From positions 183,644,001-183,708,000 of the forward strand of contig OX597814.1 of NCBI GenBank assembly GCA_951406725.2: a DNA stretch of 64,000 nucleotides, written 5' to 3'. Every line of letters starts with the position of its first letter. The stretch's first letter is position 1. A model generated the notes under the pieces. The model searched no databases. It was not told the DNA's origin and saw nothing but the letters and a program-made list of their open reading frames with translations. This stretch comes from Octopus vulgaris (Eukaryota). The position numbers and the translations under genes were made by a program. Positions 6,629 to 60,442 of the stretch are shown in pieces.

Positions 6629-8607
6629 TTATTCATTAAATTTGCCATGAAGGCAGTACATAGATGTAGCTTCGCAGGCTGGACGTAGACAATGATGGTA
6701 TGAATGATGGTGATGGGAGAGGACGAAAGCGCCCGCCGACTTCCGCTTCCCTAAGACAATGTTCTTTTTTCAAAAAGTCAAAAAGTCACAAAATTTCACA
6801 AAAGTCACAATGAGGCAATGAACCTCTTTCTCAATATGATACAATTTTTTCTTTTTAAAACATTCAAAAATTCAAGTCACCCGGCCGACCAGCGCTCTTG
6901 CTTTATCGAGGCAATCATCCTTTGTCGGGACGCGCCATGCAGGTATATATTGAAAGGAGTCCTCCGGGAAGGAATCCACGATCCTGCACAGATCGCTATC
7001 CCATAGGACCTCCACAGCCACCTGCGAAGGCCACTCAGAGTCCTCCGTGCAGGACCGAAGTCCCTCCCATTGGCCTCTCCCTTCCATTTTACCTATCTCG
7101 TTTTCAAGCGTTCCTTGAAGACCACATATTGATCCTCCGGCAGCACATCCGCCTGAGGAGGCTTGGGAGACGCCGTCTGCGTGTTACAATCCGCCGGCGG
7201 CGTCCCGTTTCTCTTTCTTCTTTTTTCCCCTTTTTTTCCCTGGGCCGCGGGAGGGTGAGGTTCCTGTGTTGCACACAACGGGTCCTCTTTTCTCCCGCAG
7301 CTCCCGGGTCTTTCGGTGGGTCACCATTGTTGCCCATCTTTCTTTTCTTTTTTGAGGATGTAGCAATTTCCTCGTTCTGTTTCTCTCCCTCCATTGGGGG
7401 AGCAGGGAGAGACTCCAACACTAACCGCTCCAGGATCCTACTTTGGTCCCTGGGGCAGTTCTTCTTAATGTGGCCGGTCTCCAGGCACAGGTGACACTTG
7501 GGGGGGGGGGGGCGTCCCTCAAGCATCACCGGATACTTGGACCCGCCCATCCTCAAGAAATCTGTAAAAAACCAGACTTTTGGCTGATTGGGTCCATAGG
7601 GTCAAAACAACTTTCGACCCCACTCCCACCCCAATCAGCCGCAGGAAACATTTTTACATTTAGCAGCTTGGCACTGCTACCACCCAGACCCCGGCGGATA
7701 GAGTCCTTTATCCACTCGGGCTCAACTCCGGGTGGTAGGCCGCAGATCCAAGCCCTCAATAGTTTTTCTCCCATATAGTTTGGGAGAAACAATATTTCTT
7801 TGCCCTCAAGGGGCTGGCTTGCAAAGTCGCAAGCTTCCTTTGGGGAGTCAAATAGCAACCAGATCGTTGCGTATTTCACTCCCCGCAAGATAAATTTAAC
7901 GGCTGGCATGTAGTCCGCCAGCTCGTTTAAAATTGTGGCCTTCGGGAAGACAGCTATGGTGTCGAGCGACTTCGAATAAGTCCTCAACACTACGGTCTTC
8001 CTTTCCAGCTCTTTTAAATATTTTTTGGAGGTGTTAGGTCCCACACAATAAATTCCTTTGCCATTTCGAAACGGAATCCAATTAAAGTTCAAAAGTGTAA
8101 GAAAATAAATAAGATACAAAGAGGGAGAGGGGAAAACACAACAGAAGAGAAGAATTACAATAAAAATAACAGTTCAAAAGAGTTCTTTTTAAAATAAACG
8201 ATAGCTGGAAGAAGAGAGTTCAAATTCAGCAAAGGAATTAATTTTTTTTGGGGGGCCGAAAAGGTACTCCTGGCCAAACGTCCAAAAGAGTCCTTGGTTA
8301 TCCTTGGAACTTCTTGGTAAATCCAACACAAAGGCAATTAATTTTTGAGGAGGGGCTACGCCTCCTCAAAAACACAATTCTCACTGCAAAGTGAGTCTTT
8401 ACGCTCGACCACAGGCAGGAAAAATGTCCGGAGCAGAGTGGAGTCTATTACTCTCCAAAAAATAATAAATACAGAGCAATAAACTTCACTAAGCCCCTAA
8501 AAAAATTCAACAAACGCCTACCTGTAGTCGAGTCTCAAAATTCAATAATTCATGCCGAAAGACATGACATCCTGCAGCAGCCAAAAAACACGTCCGAACA
8601 CGTCGAA
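6629..8607 (-). mobile_element. ORF1-only Tx1/L1-like non-LTR retroelement
   Basis: Perfect 16-bp TSD GGTTAGCAAGCTACTT (6613-6628 and 8608-8623). The 3' end is TGCCTTCATGGCA hairpin + AATGAATAAAA, and the 5' end is TTCGACGTGTTCGGACGTG. It holds a single gag-like ORF with no room for RT or EN. Confidence 0.85.
6872..8064 (-). pseudogene. Frameshifted LINE ORF1 (RRM-like segments + CCHC zinc knuckle + basic low-complexity tail)
   Basis: Track ORFs 7553-8119, 7104-7556, 7093-7278 and 6872-7087 tile one reading. Motifs are IWLLFDSPKEA, WICGLPPGV and CHLCLETGHIKKNC (C-x2-C-x4-H-x4-C). The likely start is ATG at 8064 (MAKEFIVWDL), followed by a shift in an A-run. Confidence 0.75.
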
Positions 8608-9119: not shown

Positions 9120-9189
<70 letters not shown>

Positions 9190-9893
9190 GAGGATAATAT
9201 CGATATTTAAGTATCCATATTATCTAGTGGCCAGCATGGGAAAAATACCGTACAAAGGTAATAATTTTTAACAATTAAAAATGAGGGTGTCTAAGAGACA
9301 CCAACATGCCGAAATAGCAGTCGAAACTCTGACTATAAAAACCACGTTAAGGGTTCGTGTCGCACCATGAGATAAGACAGATAGACAAAATATACAAGCA
9401 AAAATTATTGAATAATTCAAGATCCAGAATTTATGGTTTTGCTTTAAATAAGCTTTACCGTCATCGGTTGAATATATCAAGAGTACATAAATACAGATAT
9501 ATACATGCAGAACAAACGATATACTTACATATACGAACGTCCATACATAAATACATATGCACGTATGCACGCGGCCAGTTAAATTACCCGCCGAATCATC
9601 CCAAAGTACGACACGGTTAAAATAAACACCGCAGTGAAAATAATAACGAATTATATATATTTATATATGAGGATAATATCGATATTTAAGTATCCATATT
9701 ATCTAGTGGCCAGCATGGGAAAAATACCGTACAAAGGTAATATTTTTTAACAATTAAAAATGAGGGTGTCTAAGAGGCACCAACATGCCGAAATAGCAGT
9801 CGAAACTCTGACTATAAAAACCACGTTAAGGGTTCGTGTCGCACCATGAGATAAGACAGATAGACAAAATATACAAGCAAAAATTATTGAATA

Positions 9894-9952
9894 ATTCAAG
9901 ATCCAGGATTTCTGGTTTTGCTTTAAATAAGCTTTACCGTCATCGGTTGAAT
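9894..9952 (-). ncRNA. Type I hammerhead ribozyme motif (copy B)
   Basis: Reverse complement of the 10175-10233 motif. Confidence 0.65.
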
Positions 9953-10174
9953 ATATCAAGAGTACATAAATACAGATATATACGTGCAGAACATACATTC
10001 GTTATTATTTTCACTGCGGTGTTTATTTTAACCGTGTCGTACTTTGGGATGATTCGGCGGGTAATTTAACTGGCCGCGTGCATACGTGCATATGTATTTA
10101 TGTATGGACGTTCGTATATGTAGGTATATCGTTTGTTCTGCATGTATATATCTGTATTTATGTACTCTTGATAT

Positions 10175-10233
10175 ATTCAACCGATGACGGTAAAGCTTAT
10201 TTAAAGCAAAACCAGAAATCCTGGATCTTGAAT
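10175..10233 (+). ncRNA. Type I hammerhead ribozyme motif (copy C), CCGAUGA core
   Basis: Stem I ATTCAA/TTGAAT; core CCGATGA (10181-10187); stem II GGT/ACC plus GCTT/AAGC; GAAA (10215-10218); stem III TCC-T-GGA; cleavage triplet AUC ending at 10227. Confidence 0.7.
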
Positions 10234-10367
10234 TATTCAATAATTTTTGCTTGTATATTTTGTCTATCTGTCTTATCTCATGGTGCGACACGAACCCTTA
10301 ACGTGGTTTTTATAGTCAGAGTTTCGACTGCTATTTCGGCATGTTGGTGTCTCTTAGACACCCTCAT

Positions 10368-10443
<76 letters not shown>

Positions 10444-16184: not shown

Positions 16185-16835
16185 ACTGAACTCAAAGAAC
16201 TCTACACAGCCCAAATGTGACGGTCTGGTGTGCTGTTTGAAAAGCTGCCGTCATTGGTCCTTACTTTTTTAAAGACAATAATGGAAATGCTGGTAGTGTG
16301 AACTCCGAGCGTTGCGTCAAGATGATAAACAACTTCTTTATGCCTGGATTACGACGAAAACGTATGTCTATTCGACGTGTATGGTTTCAGCAGGATGGGG
16401 CGACGGCCTACACAGCCAGGGCATCAGTGGACGCCCTCTCTTCGGTGACCACCCCATTTCCAGGTTTACTGATATTCGTTGGCTTCCTCAGTCCCCTGAT
16501 TTGTCCATGTGTGATTATTGCTTGTGGGGAAACCTCAGGGTTCGTTTGTATGCGCTTAAGCCCCGTACATTGAACGATTTAAAGGAAGCTATTCGCGTGA
16601 AAGTCGAGGAAATCGACAGAGCGATGCCGGAGAGAGTGGAGACCAACTTCCAACAACGCCTTCAGAAATGCATCAATGAAAACGGACACCAGATGATGGA
16701 TGTTGTTCTCCACACTTAACTTTGACAAATGCTAATTCAATACAAACACATTGATGTCAATAAAATTTTGTTTGCAGCTAAAATTAATGATTTTGTGAAA
16801 TTTTCAACAACATCCGTCCTCTCTGCCCCACCCTG
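16185..16835 (+). mobile_element. Tc1/mariner-superfamily transposon 3' half, rosa/DD41D-like
   Basis: Reads HSPNVTVWCAV..VIGPYFF, WFQQDGATAYT, WLPQSPDLSMCDYCLWGNL...RLQKCINENGH, frameshifted. Ends CACCCTG followed by TA at 16836-16837. Confidence 0.85.
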
Positions 16836-22180: not shown

Positions 22181-23500
22181 CAGATGAGGAGTTTGTGCAG
22201 GCCCTTGATGCCAAGCGCGTGAAACTAAACCTACCATCGGCTAATGCCAAAGATCAATGGGAGGAGCAAAACAACTTGCCGCAAAACTTGATGCCTTGAT
22301 AAGGAAAATTACTCTGGAACGCAAACTAGCCACATACGGAGACGTTGTGTATGCAACCTGCAGGGACATCCTTGGAGTAAAAAAGCCAACGGAGAAGAAG
22401 CCACCTCAGAAATCCAGGCGGCAGCGCATGATGGGGCACACTAAGATTCAGAAGAATAACCTACGGAAACAACTAAAGATTGCCTCTGATACTGAGCGGC
22501 AAGGCTTGCATGAACTCTGGCAAGACTTGGATACCAAAGATAGTGCCCATAGCAAAGCGGAAACTGAGTAAAAAAAAGAGAGTAAGCGGAAAAAAAGACG
22601 CATGACCGCTTCTTCAAAGGCCCCTTCCAATTCGTTAGGGCGCTGTTTGAGCAGCCAAAGTCTGGAACACTGACTGTTGATAAAGACGTGCTTGAACACT
22701 ACCTCGAAGAAGCATGCGCACAAACCCAGAAAGATACCCCGCTTAACATCCCTGGCCTAGTAGAACCTGGCAGACTGACAACAGCATTCAACGACAAGCC
22801 ACCCACGTTGAAGGAGATGAGGAAGGTGGTCGAGAAAGCCAGAGCCAAGTCCGCGCCGGGTTCTAACGGAATATCGTACCTTCTGTACAAGAAATGCCCC
22901 CAAAATCCTGGCATGGCTCCACAGAATGTTATGGTCAGCCTGGAAGAACAAGAAGGACAGTGCCCAATGGATGATGGCTGACGGTGTCTACATCTCCAAA
23001 GAACAGAACTTATCATACACCATCAACCAGTTCAGATCCATCTTACTCCTGAACGTCGAAGGGAAGATATTGTTCTCTGTCATGGCTGCCAGACTGACCA
23101 GCTACCTGCTGGAAAGCAGCTATCTGGATGTGTCTGTCCAGAAGGGAGGCATACCAGGAATACCCGACTACCTAGAACACGTCACGATGATTTGGGATGC
23201 AATCCAGAAGGCCAAGGCAGGAAAGAAAGACCTTCACGTCATATGGCTTGACCTTACCAACGTGTATGGATCTGTGCCACAAGAGATGAATCAGATGTCT
23301 CTCCAAGCGTACAACGTGATGCCCTACATCCCAGAAATGTTGAAAAGCTACTTTGTCGATGCGGCTCTCTAAAAAGGAGTACACAACCAGCTGGATGTGC
23401 CATCTCCCCCACCCTTTTCGTGTTGGCAATGGAAGTCCTATTGAGGGCAGCTTCTGGTGGTGCAAAACCGGCTGACCTCGGCAATGGCCACCAGACACAT
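22181..23500 (+). pseudogene. HERO-clade non-LTR retrotransposon reverse-transcriptase fragment
   Basis: Reads KSAPGSNGISYLLYKKCP, QFRSILLLNVEGKILFS, YLDVSVQKGGIPG..LEH, IWLDLTNVYGSVP and GCAISPTLFVLAMEVL, with stops, frameshifts and an internal deletion. Confidence 0.85.
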
Positions 23501-27109: not shown

Positions 27110-28235
27110 TTACCTTAATGTCTCTGCTGAGTATGTCATGTTCATGTCTTTACATGCACCTTCTATGCCTTTTATACTACAGATTACATTTCTGTAGTTA
27201 ATGCCAGGGTTAATCTTACATGTCATGCAGTTATCATTGGTGCATATGGTATTCTCAAAGGGGTATATTCTACATAGCTGTAATGTGATGGAGTTCCCTG
27301 GCTCATTCAACAATCTTAATGTTGAATTTGGTCTCCTTCAGAGCTTTCCTGAATCTACGGGCTAGTTCTCCATGGGCTGTGGTCTCCACAAACATCACTC
27401 TTTGATATTTATTGCTTTTATACCACGTGTTCACCCTGTTTGTTTTGTCACAAGCTCTTTGTATGCTATTCCAGTCTTTGCTTCTATATCTAGGGCAGGC
27501 ATTACTGGTTTCATTGCATACAATGTTATCTAACTTCTTTCTAGCACCCCTGTATACTCGAACCCTATTTTCTGATCATATCCAGAGAACTGCATGCGCT
27601 CTGCGGTATTTTTCTTCACTGCTGAGGGGATGGCGTGTGGTCTTCCCCTCTGTGACCTGGTGGGGAAGAATCTACTGAAGTCATGATCATCTAAATAGTC
27701 ACTGCCGTAGCTTAGTCTAAGTCCCTCCGTGTTGACTTCACGGTACTCTACTTCACTCTCACAGATTATCTCAATGCAATTCTCCTCAGCAAAATCTATG
27801 TCTATAGATAGGTAGAGTGAAATTACATCCACACTAGTCACTACACGACCTATGAGGTCGTTGGAGTGGTTGCAAGTACTGATTTTACTGAGGAGATCCT
27901 CCGTGCTCACACAGATATCTGGGGACATTTCTATGGGAGGTCGTAATACCCGTGAGAAGAAGTAGGACAGTCGGAGATATTTGCTCCAAAAACTGGTCGG
28001 TTTGGTGGCCCCATAACAGGGATTATGTAGGTTTTATGGTCTTTGCGTAACCCCAGTAGAGTGTAGGAACATCATTGTTGGATGCTTGAAAATTGTGTGC
28101 AGCCGGTTTCTTAGGCTGGATTTTTATGCTCCACATTCCCATGTGTGCATTGAGGAGTTTTCTTTATGCTGGAAATCTATATGTTTGGCTGCTTCAGAAG
28201 AGAGCAGTTTGTTTCATTTTGATGTAATGTTTCCA
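27110..28235 (-). pseudogene. Penelope-like element RT / linker / GIY-YIG start, internally deleted
   Basis: Reads LLGLRKDHK, SVDVISLYLSID (PLE RT motif), WYKSNKYQRVMFVETTAHGELARRFRKAL..IKIVE, CTNDNCMTC (C-x4-C-x2-C linker) and TYSAETLR (YxGET.R-like). Confidence 0.8.
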
Positions 28236-28238
28236 TTG

Positions 28239-28283
<45 letters not shown>

Positions 28284-32373: not shown

Positions 32374-32580
32374 TAATCCAAACATGAAAACACAAAGGGA
32401 AAACACAACAACGCGAGGACGTGGAACAAGTATAGTGTTATTGGACGCTCAGGAAAGGTAAGAAAGGAGGAGGATTTAACGTTTCGAGCGGGGCTCTTCG
32501 TCAGAAACATAGAAAAAGGAAAGGTCCAAGGAAGGGAAGGTGGAGAAAGAAATTCGCCAACTATACACACGCAGTCACAT
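32369..32580 (-). mobile_element. Penelope-type pseudo-LTR fragment
   Basis: Carries a classic PLE minimal hammerhead, and its 3' end abuts (TA)n. Confidence 0.75.
32475..32508 (-). ncRNA. Minimal type I hammerhead motif with palindromic stem III
   Basis: Minus strand GTTT-CTGACGA-A-GAGC-CCC-GCTC-GAAA-CGTT-AAAT. The AACGTT palindrome is as in dimer-acting PLE hammerheads. Confidence 0.75.
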
Positions 32581-56889: not shown

Positions 56890-59263
56890 TAACATATGCA
56901 TAAGTATATACACACGTGTATATATGTATGTATATATGTGTGTATGTATGTATGTATGTATGTATGTATGTATGTATGTATGTATGTATGTATGAATGGA
57001 TGGATGGATGGATGGATGTTCGTATGTTTGTATGTATGTATGTATGTATAGAACTCACATGTATCATATGTTGGCATGTGCGCCCAAGCGAGTGTAATGA
57101 TATCCGTGTGTACATTTGTGTAATATTGTGTATTAGTGATTAATATGACTGTTTCATTAGAAAATTTTGTGTCTATTGTTATAACGAAAGTGGCCTTATC
57201 TGGTATTTAGTCATTTAGTGGAAGATTAATCCTCAGTTAGACTTCAAAATAAAGTAGATGTCTGAAAATGTCGCCTACGTTTCAAGGATTAAATTGTGTC
57301 CACCTTCAGACAAATTAAAGCCTATTAGTTTAGGTAGAAGAGAAATATATATCATGAAGAAAATTAGTTTATCATGAATACATTGTAATAGTGTATATAG
57401 AGAAATGAGATCTTGAATAAATACTATTTGTTGCAAATTTCTATCAAAACTTAAAGAGGCAACGTTTATTGTCAGCGTAAACTTAATTGCGCATTAAATT
57501 TGAGATCGTGACATCCCCTCTTTCTGACTAGAAGTCTCTCTCTGTCAAAATATTTGATTATAAACTATCGCATCTACGTTTACTTTTGTTATGTATGAAT
57601 ACATATTAATATATTTAATGTGATTATTCAACAAAATATTCAATATTCACTTTATAGGCCGTTTTCTTTTATATATAGAAGTATTTTTTCTCATGATTAT
57701 ATCCTTCTGAACAAATTGTGTTTTATCTAGCCATTCTTTGACGACCATTTAAATAATAACTCCGCTCAAATCACCATCTTCGCATTTTAAAGAAAACAAA
57801 TGACTAAATTTTATTAGATTTCGTGAATTAATATACTTCTTATTGTATATGATAGCATCACTTACAGTAAGTCAGACACTAAGAATTTAAAAATTGTCTT
57901 AAGTCAGCCTGATGCCTTGCTATTTTGTCTTTTACTAATACGCATGTTAGATGTTTCGGTTTCCACAAATTATATGAAGTAGATGCATATACAATTTGTT
58001 GTCGGAAAATTTATATATAAATGCAAAATATTGTCTCACAGTAAAGTTCACCTTAAAAACTATTTATTCGAATTTTCTCTTATTTTAAACGTAAAAGTGG
58101 CTTATTATTTTCTTTATAGACATTATATTTATTTCTTTTAACAGAACAGGACGTCAATATTTCTGTAACATTTATATCAATTTATTAAGAATTTTCTCAA
58201 AACGAATTCCGATGTGATACAGTTTAATCGATTACTCCTCCAGAATCAGAATAAAGAACTGGTTTTAAGCTGAACATAATAAATCAATGAGATTACAATG
58301 AAGCCATTAGCAGCACGCTAAAAGTGTCATTTCTTAAATCCGCTTACTTTATATCCTTTTCTGGATTAACAATTTGTAATTAAAGTCATAATTAGTTTGA
58401 CTTGGCTCAGTGCTGTTGTTTGTAGTGTCGTGAGAGAGGCTATTTAATTAATTCTAGTATATATTTTATTTCTAATTATTATTATCGTCGTATCATTAAA
58501 GACTGTATTTAGAATTGCCTGAGCTATATTCTTGGTGATATCACGTTAAATATCGACTGACTCGAATTTATAGCAAAAGAGTGGAAATTATTATATCATA
58601 TATAACATATCAGGTATAGAATATATGATCCACTTTAACCCAAAGATGGCTTTATATATTTGCCGGTCATTTTATTGACCTTCGAAATATGAAAATTAAA
58701 AAGTATTGCTGAACCATGTAGATAATCTAATTTCATCAAATGAAGCATCTATTCCAGTTCTCTAATATATCAGCGGCTTCTACAAGTACCACTTGAATAC
58801 CATAATGGTAGGAATACTATTTTCTATGTAACATGTTGTAGATTTTATGGAATATTAAGTCTGGTCATATTTCTGATAAACGTAATTTCGGTATTTTAAG
58901 CTCAGCTTCATAATAATATGCGCGTTACGACAAAAGATAGAACTGAAGTTTTAGCTTGCACAACTTTCAACACTTTGAAAATAATCGTACAAAAGATACA
59001 CGAGATTCGTATACCATAGCAAATTATGTCTTACATAATTTGCAATCGTCAACAGCTCACATAACGGCTATTTCGGTATATATTGTGACAATGTACCATA
59101 TTTTCATTCGCAAGATTTTAAGTTGGTGATCCTCAAACTTGTCTCACCGAACGCTAAATTGTCTTAATTTTCATCCGATTCGAGTTTTCAAAAGTTCCTG
59201 TCATAAAGGAAAGCTTGGCACCAGCAGGTAGGAATTACACATACATACATACATACATACATA

Positions 59264-59321
<58 letters not shown>

Positions 59322-59396
59322 TAGAGATAGTAGTCCCTTTCATCCCACCATATAAAAATTTTTTTAATTTAATTTAATACTTACTACTCATTTCTC

Positions 59397-59490
59397 GGCT
59401 ACACGTGTTTCTCGAGGTTCTTTTACGGTTCCTTAAGCAGGCAGTGTTTTACAGGAACCTTTCTTAAGATGTAACCCCAATCATCAGGCC
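59397..59490 (-). ncRNA. Type I hammerhead motif with extended stem II (mirror copy)
   Basis: Reverse complement of 60070-60163 with core, GAAA and stem III intact. Confidence 0.7.
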
Positions 59491-60069
59491 TCTAAGTAAC
59501 TTTATCATAGTTCGATACCAAATACTATATTTGGTAGTTGTTTCGCCAAATCTTGCGACGTCAAGCCGAAATTAATACGTAGTAGGACAATGGTAGTCAA
59601 CGGTAGTTTGTTCATGTTTTGTACCCTTAAGTTATTTTTACTTTGTAAATTTTTAATTTTTTATCATTCGTATCATTTGTAAATTTTCTTGTTGCATTTT
59701 GTCATTCGTACTATAGTTTTTATTCGAAAATATTTATTTGTCATTGCTTTCATTTTTATTCGAATATATTTATTTGTCATAGCTTTCATTTTATATCATC
59801 GCAAGTATATAATTTATTTTTATCCCTATATATTATTAATTTTATATGAATGTTTACAGACATAAGTTACGCGAGAATTTAGTTTTTGTAAACTTTTACT
59901 TTTTATTCTTTATTCGTATTTTTTATTTTTTATTTTATTTGTTATTTTTATTTGAATTAAATTATGGCTTGTACAGTAATGTCCGGCGAACCTATTTACA
60001 CATACACATACTTATTTGTTAAAATTAAAATATGGTATTTGGTATCGGACTATGATAAAGTTATTTAGA

Positions 60070-60163
60070 GGCCTGATGATTGGGGTTACATTTTAAGAAA
60101 GGTTCCTGTAAAACACTGCGTGCTTAAGGAACCGTAAAAGAACCTCGAGAAACACGTGTAGCC
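60070..60163 (+). ncRNA. Type I hammerhead motif with extended stem II
   Basis: Stem I GGC/GCC; CTGATGA (60073-60079); stem II base TTGGGGTT/AACCTCGA; GAAA (60149-60152); palindromic CACGTG; cleavage triplet GUA ending at 60160. Confidence 0.72.
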
Positions 60164-60356
60164 GAGAAATGAATAGTAAGTATTAAATTAAATTAAAATT
60201 CTTTTATATGGTAGAATGAAGGGGGCTACTATCTCTAAATAATATATATATATATATGTCCTCATTGAGAATAATTTGAACCCCTGTGATGCCAGGATTT
60301 TTATTCCCTAATAAATAAAGTAAAATTAAAAAAATATATATATACACACACATTCA

Positions 60357-60398
<42 letters not shown>

Positions 60399-60442
60399 CA
60401 TATATATACATATTCATATGGATAGATATATATATATATATG

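Follow-up and report, generated by a model that had tools for sequence, protein, structure and literature searches.

We find that a 931-nt insert between two TA runs of the window, the 64,000-nt stretch of Octopus vulgaris contig OX597814.1 analysed here, is best explained as the 5'-truncated, non-coding 3' end of a Penelope-like retroelement (PLE) accompanied by an inverted, shorter copy of itself within (TA)n. We hold this reading with good confidence. It includes, in each copy, a type I hammerhead motif that belongs to the family, has a 69-nt stem II and is predicted to cut at a GUA site mainly as a dimer. The insert ends in two inverted arms, each with a complete hammerhead core, and is part of a repeat family in which the length of the stem II arm is a family-wide trait and the inversion junction is rare. 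We infer the PLE origin from the shape of the insert, which is that of a retroelement end lacking its 5' part and joined to a shorter copy in inverse orientation, as described for PLEs along with (TA)n targeting (PMC8557442). The length of the stem II arm is the unusual part of the insert; the foldback structure is already known for PLEs. The foldback is likely ordinary, and its two ribozymes probably do not function as a pair.

The window DNA is of animal type and rich in microsatellites, and (TA)n runs at 59268-59317 and 60243-60257 form the left and right flanks of the likely target site. The left arm (59314-59532, minus strand) is an inverted, 5'-truncated copy of the element 3' end, and the right arm (60028-60245, plus strand) is the 3' end of the direct copy. 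Each arm is about 218 nt long, and the two are 93.6% identical when the left is read in reverse. The T-rich body between them (49% T; 59533-60027, plus strand) has no long ORF and is likely the 3' UTR of the direct copy. On either strand of the insert, reading 5' to 3' leads from TA into the reverse copy of the same RNA 3' end. Both ends of the insert stop at the same place, and the (TA)n would mask a target-site duplication or a tail of 30-40 bp. The inversion junction is spanned by a 9-bp hairpin with a 3-nt loop (59516-59536, plus strand), which may have had a role in template switching; 5 bp are native to the arm, and only 4 bp, derived from the body, go beyond what the arm supplies.

As in the (TA)n insertions of PLEs that carry an inverted, 5'-truncated copy (Craig et al. 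2021, PMC8557442), inverted repeats flank the unit, the 5' truncation is strong and the target is a microsatellite. Unlike those insertions, the present one contains no ORF, hence no clade can be assigned. The original prediction regarded the foldback as a special unit, a view that we do not retain: the structure matches the published inverted 5'-truncated copies (PMC8557442), and hammerhead pairs on opposite strands, 100-700 bp apart, have already been reported and ascribed to truncated PLEs (PMC4209133). The window also holds a second such insert, at 9173-10371, which is partial-tandem plus inverted and lies between (TA)n runs. Its copies are 98-99% alike, and its outer ends differ by about 100 nt. 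It carries a hammerhead-like motif at about 10176-10232 (plus strand), with a CCGATGA core variant, a 27-nt two-part stem II and a stem I of at least 5 bp, and more copies of the motif on the minus strand at 9951 and 9472.

Each arm of the 931-nt insert contains a hammerhead-type RNA motif that is predicted to cleave itself. The plus-strand motif (60070-60163) comprises GGC (60070-60072), CTGATGA (60073-60079), 69 nt (60080-60148), GAAA (60149-60152), the palindrome ACACGTGT (60152-60159), A17 at 60160 and GCC (60161-60163), with the predicted cut after 60160. The minus-strand motif (59397-59490) has the same order, with the core starting at 59487, stem II at 59480-59412 and the predicted cut after 59400. 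Both arms have the type I core (CUGANGA, GAAA, and A15.1-U16.1 followed by H17). In the predicted fold, three stems surround a core that is open at stem I. Stem I has 3 bp, stem II 8 bp and stem III 2 bp, the last extending to 8 bp in a dimer. A palindromic stem III with a GUA site had been proposed from the outset and is present in each arm. The three helices proposed for the 69 nt between CTGATGA and GAAA likewise all appear in the predicted right-arm fold, where the stem II domain (60080-60148, plus strand) consists of helices of 8, 5 and 7 bp with a 19-nt loop. The middle helix of the left arm has a C-A mismatch at the equivalent of 60092. Past a purine-rich internal loop, a distal stem I is predicted between 60061-60067 and 60170-60176 (60061-60176, plus strand). 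Its pair 60064/60173 differs between the arms, being U-A on the right and C-G on the left. We rejected this pair as a compensatory change: the family has G at 60173 in DNA-type runs, 60064 is absent from the variant rows listed, and the difference may reflect two single changes from U-G.

The combination of core and stems exceeds chance. A type I descriptor tolerating spacers of up to about 120 nt picked out both arms plus one further motif in the window, compared with a mean of 0.01 matches per shuffle over 100 window shuffles; 0 of the 100 contained a match with a stem II of at least 8 bp plus a palindrome of at least 8 nt. Predicted folding energy by itself is unexceptional, only mildly better than that of shuffled sequence. 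The 69-nt domain has a z-score of -2.07 (7 of 200 shuffles were equally good), and the 126-nt right and left regions have z-scores of -1.19 and -0.39. In the right arm, stems I and II have pair probabilities of 0.88-0.98; stem III of the monomer has 0.04 there and 0.31 in the left arm. The hammerhead fold costs 3.1 kcal/mol (right) and 4.1 kcal/mol (left) relative to the free ensemble, and an 8-bp intermolecular duplex of the palindrome has a computed energy of -12.3 kcal/mol. Rfam hammerhead models gave no match at the gathering threshold across the whole window, and none at E<=10 over 59200-60400. This silence bears out the expectation of an atypical motif with a large stem II that length-limited searches would miss, as would a spacer limit of 7-17 nt like that of the core search in PMC8557442.

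The motif can be compared with the minimal type I hammerheads (min-HHR) of metazoan PLEs (Cervera and de la Pena 2014, PMC4209133). Like them, it has a short helix I, an 8-bp helix II (the group norm is 7-8 bp), a palindromic stem III (region 15.2-16.2) suited to dimers, the mode proposed for PLE hammerheads, and an opposite-strand partner in the 100-700 bp range. It also lies near the element 3' end, as in PLEs, with the predicted cut site 85 nt from that end. Unlike them, it has a 69-nt spacer with two extra helices, so that a 53-nt extension takes the place of a small loop II; its stem II closes with U10.1-A11.1 rather than with the G10.1-C11.1 pair reported as highly conserved in PLE motifs; and it has no bulged base after position 9, only 3 bp of stem I before the internal loop, and a longer, 8-nt palindrome (PMC4209133). 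Because the G10.1-C11.1 and small-loop features fail, we liken the motif to the PLE min-HHR without classing it there. A textbook minimal PLE-type hammerhead does occur elsewhere in the window, at about 32470-32510 (minus strand, 32504), with a 12-nt stem II, a bulged A and a G-C closing pair; it lies about 110 nt ahead of a (TA)n run.

The premise that PLE hammerheads usually have a very short stem II proved overstated, given a helix II of 7-8 bp in PMC4209133 and spacers of 48-54 nt among the mostly short ones in the hammerhead table of the PMC8557442 supplement. The type I motifs borne by PLE-X1_sMoe and PLE-X1_sTam of spike mosses (file S2 of PMC8557442) also have a long stem II, with 54 and 48 nt between core halves by our own count, and are flagged there as deviating; stem II of PLE-X1_sMoe is likewise closed by U-A. 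Long arms therefore have precedent. Unlike the element studied here, these two are plant elements that target rDNA, lack an endonuclease and have a shorter spacer, and we saw no sequence link in the available part of that source. Non-LTR retrozymes (PMC7229834; bioRxiv 10.64898/2026.07.22.740005) are similar in being non-coding and PLE-related and in having a type I hammerhead with a weak stem III. They consist of head-to-tail tandem units giving circular RNA, whereas the insert has one direct and one inverted copy; we found no head-to-tail units each with a hammerhead at the locus, and no 'goes back' joint among the contig joints. Eight element motifs matched consensus sequences in the available PMC8557442 supplement only inside unrelated sequence, and the octopus Naiad 3' ends given there show no likeness to the element by eye. 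We found no description of the element family or of the 69-nt arm in full-text literature searches or in a motif search of two supplements.

The motif belongs to a repeat family found under three organism labels. Part of the stretch is contained in 20 of the 24 run entries listed, under four organism labels, and our statements about the family rest on the four runs from which contigs were placed on 59505-60246: 525 contigs from X1, 522 from X2, 267 from X8 and 6 from X13 (organisms A, B, D and A). The entries record no run as RNA; X13 is only guessed to be RNA, and its six contigs are no evidence of transcription. Summed contig depth, which is not a copy number and which skips the low-complexity stretch 59911-59964, is 3'-heavy. 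In X1 it is 19-31k over 60055-60154, 12k at 60005-60054, 4.6k at 59980-60004, 0.6-3k across most of the body and 87 at 59530-59554. The gradient peaks over the last 190 nt and shows no step at the inner arm end, 60028. Depth at the left-arm/body junction is 87, 152 and 19 in X1, X2 and X8 against 12k, 11k and 0.7k at 60030-60054, and we put junction coverage at under 1% of arm coverage. The depth profile thus indicates that the 'spacer' between the arms is family body and not unique DNA, and that the inversion junction is rare. One X2 contig contains an opposite-strand joint, 59634/59975, which is another inversion point, and loose contig ends behind 60240 continue into TA in X1, X2 and X8. 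Exactly at window position 60070, the first base of stem I, loose ends of contigs from X2 and X8, two organisms, join different upstream sequence, apparently marking either a subfamily or a truncated form beginning with the ribozyme.

These data bear on whether the insert could be a MITE or foldback DNA transposon that has terminal inverted repeats of 218 bp and uses a TA target, in which case its hammerhead motif would be a passenger or a product of chance. The long inverted ends, the TA flanks and the lack of an ORF would suit such an element, but we regard it as improbable: a recurrent two-ended structure is contradicted by the junction depths, homology continues past the inner arm end, a further inversion point is known, and the full hammerhead descriptor exceeds chance.

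The 69-nt length of stem II is a family-wide trait. The full spacer and both core halves are present without gaps in six pieces among the 32 listed of 1349 (X1 record 3; X2 records 16, 18 and 20; X13 records 12 and 13), which come from organisms A and B and have 10-20 other differences each. X8 record 30 (organism D) has the first half of the core together with 65 of the 69 spacer nt. No variant affects the 13 core bases among the 40 rows listed of 122, and no indel falls in 60070-60163 among the 12 indel rows listed of 33; at the observed density, the chance of a variant-free core is 0.28. Variant positions number 6 of 94 in the ribozyme and 16 of 148 in the flank among the variant rows listed (p=0.17). 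At 60147, nearly all family depth has A (a U-A pair) where both window arms have G (a U-G pair). The outer stem I base, C60163, varies: about 55% of X1 depth has T and about 31% has A, which breaks the pair; T60107 is A in about 18%, shortening the inner helix. An X8 loose end behind 60134 carries another 3' strand (AAGATGT) that is complementary by eye to 60088-60094, with 0.64 agreement among four contigs, after which the palindrome is lost. Evidence on stem covariation is limited to the per-position variant rows (40 listed of 122) and this one low-agreement loose end.

A serious possibility, falling somewhat short of an even chance, is that the insert has the same PLE-tail origin while its hammerhead is a decayed or very slow relic, with the 53-nt extension a neutral insertion or an old fold-back spread by one successful master copy. 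The U-A closing pair, the 3-bp stem I with its variable outer pair and the weak z-scores are consistent with decay, as is a family-level conservation that is not significant; the X8 loose end can be interpreted as the decayed remnant of an older near-perfect hairpin, and cleavage by PLE hammerheads is slow and not needed for insertion in vitro (PMC4209133, PMC11167929). Against decay stand the intact core in both arms and in the variant rows listed, the gap-free arm length in contigs that differ at 10-20 other positions, and the CpG within the palindrome, where 60156 is A in only about 5% of X1 depth. Signals of selection on the stem II extension are weak throughout (z-scores, arm-difference p of 0.02-0.08, family p of 0.17, U-A closing pair).

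The ribozyme region had been described as differing at only about two positions between the arms, with more differences elsewhere. The first part stands exactly, with 2 differences among 94 positions (60070-60163) against 12 among 124 elsewhere (one-sided Fisher p=0.02, with region boundaries picked after inspection of the data). Better conservation of the ribozyme is a weaker matter, with p=0.08 once a four-change cluster at an A/T run counts as one and p=0.17 across the family. The same contrast could be taken to favour the two outward-facing ribozymes as a selected unit, such as a regulated antisense switch or an RNA of retrozyme type that undergoes processing on both strands. We think this very improbable, as a single cut per strand releases neither a unit nor a circle, a tandem repeat is lacking, the family rarely has this junction, the two arms have a private base in common as if from one copying event, and the motif would be buried in an arm-arm duplex. 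A read-through transcript would contain one motif plus its own antisense, as anticipated: in the predicted fold, the opposite arm pairs with 210 of the first 218 nt on the plus strand and with 209 on the minus strand. The copy in the insert is probably catalytically silent because read-through RNA would lock the motif in this duplex. Apart from being a likely source of long double-stranded RNA, if it is transcribed, the foldback is of little further note.

The features that the insert has in common with PLEs are its 5' truncation (read from contig depth, which is not copy number), its inverted truncated copy and its microsatellite target. In Anolis, the PLE protein, a predicted dimer, cleaves and extends each of the two strands and inserts unprocessed RNA (PMC11167929). 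By a comparable route, a PLE protein would nick both strands of the TA target, reverse transcription would be primed twice at the same RNA 3' end, once per target strand, and the two cDNAs, of about 713 and 218 nt, would be joined at a short hairpin or microhomology. The source RNA would have been uncleaved, because both arms retain the 85 nt past the cut site, and a single source for both arms is suggested by the G60147 that they have in common where the family has A. Stem III, too weak in a monomer at 2 bp, could form 8 bp between two RNAs through the palindrome. The long stem II may be an ordinary 8-bp PLE helix II whose loop was replaced by a 53-nt hairpin, and this hairpin might dock on the stem I internal loop or bind the PLE protein.

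Several observations count against the PLE reading. At least 540 nt upstream of the motif are non-coding, compared with -19 to 350 nt in seven PLE-like loci, and the U-A closing pair, the 3-bp stem I with a variable outer base and the weak z-scores fit it poorly. The linked PLE ORF that the original prediction had in mind did not emerge: no RT or GIY-YIG ORF is tied to the element in this truncated copy, and tblastn of 22 proteins plus 61 locus ORFs matched the window only at 27-28 kb.

A more specific proposal, which we consider unlikely, casts the 69-nt stem II as a domain under selection within an active hammerhead of a high-copy PLE family. This domain would dock on the stem I internal loop or load the PLE protein, and the 8-bp palindromic stem III would bring two template RNAs together, allowing a dimeric PLE protein to prime both target strands. 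If the proposal were true, PLE hammerheads would gain a job in making inverted insertions, and it would point to a whole class of motifs with long arms, overlooked by length-limited searches. PLE hammerheads cleave slowly, are assisted by protein in one system and are not required for insertion in vitro (PMC11167929). The 53-nt extension, being family-wide, offers a natural handle on their role, being removable, with cleavage and protein binding as readouts. Spacer limits in published searches lose real motifs.

We also looked for relatives of the element and for PLE-related loci. DNA pattern scans returned 13 and 1 stretches in viral contigs and 7 in GTDB genomes, all of them short chance matches lacking further similarity, and 0 matches in metagenomes; we take the 16S-like context of two of the GTDB matches to be coincidence. 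The window contains a broken RT gene fragment at 27306-28241 (minus strand), and nothing ties it to the element. Its RT-like part (27533-28033) has 102 relatives by HMMER, no Pfam match and no match in a word-indexed search of longer proteins. Pfam gave no name to the relatives P0004 or P0011; the long relatives presumably resemble PLE (Neptune-type) ORFs. A seven-protein alignment of these relatives retrieved 0 loci in viral contigs and at least 66 in metagenomes. None of the 66 metagenome loci listed resembles the element, the best match having an E of 0.005 over 46 nt of T-rich sequence. The type I descriptor, with rows whose stems I plus II total under 8 bp dropped, found 11 motifs in 10 of these 66 loci, all with spacers of 12-18 nt; the matches in L080 and L083 lie far from the matched ORF. 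A looser scan behind 14 ORFs gave no long-spacer motif. In four loci (L022, L029, L030 and L033), one to four TGACGTCA sites occur in the first 150 nt behind the ORF, right after the stop, and are possibly promoter elements of a pseudo-LTR. A GACGTCA at 59557 is reminiscent of sites behind several PLE-like ORFs; the window has seven of these, and we did not use it. Other fragments in the window are an RT fragment at 22586-23369 (plus strand; RVT_1, E 0.0009), a zinc-knuckle ORF fragment at 7107-8173 (minus strand; E 0.004) and a frame at 16297-16716 (plus strand) that we take to be transposase-like and that has no informative Pfam match.

A long spacer could in principle also arise in a non-circularly permuted hammerhead (type CSG) with the cut strand inside loop II. 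Naiad 'half cores' have spacers of 35-50 nt (PMC8557442), and by eye the published nematode Naiad ends read in the order CUGAUGA, cut strand, GAAA, which is CSG-like. For the octopus insert this is hardly tenable: no UH site among the 69 nt of either arm has 2 bp or more on each side, towards stem III and towards stem I, the permuted descriptor is silent at 59.3-60.2 kb, and each motif has a normal GUA site with stem I after GAAA.

The permuted reading forms a separate lead. Naiad 3' ends are reported to lack canonical hammerheads (PMC8557442 supplement), and several of them read by eye as permuted hammerheads, with different sequences and the same pairings (places 25-46 of 62). In octopus, jellyfish and ostracod Naiads, the order by eye is the 5' strand of stem II, cut strand, GAAA and then CUGAUGA. 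Such a reading could account for the 'half cores' of PMC8557442. Non-circular hammerhead permutations are reported almost exclusively from metatranscriptomes and metagenomes (PMC10085705); Naiad is not mentioned in the available text of that paper, and a literature search for a link between Naiad and permuted hammerheads found none. A permuted descriptor run on 359.6 kb, comprising the window and 66 loci, gave three matches, each with all three stems of at least 5 bp, against a mean of 0.5 loose and 0 strict matches in 40 shuffles. The three candidates lie at about 2490-2565 of the window (minus strand), at 3905-4050 of L048 and at 5480-5605 of L051 (both plus strand), the latter two 0.7-0.9 kb behind an RT ORF. 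In all three, stem II uses the upstream strand and not the strand after CUGANGA, and in this they may differ from type SGC. These candidates are the stronger lead, maybe more novel than the long-armed motif.
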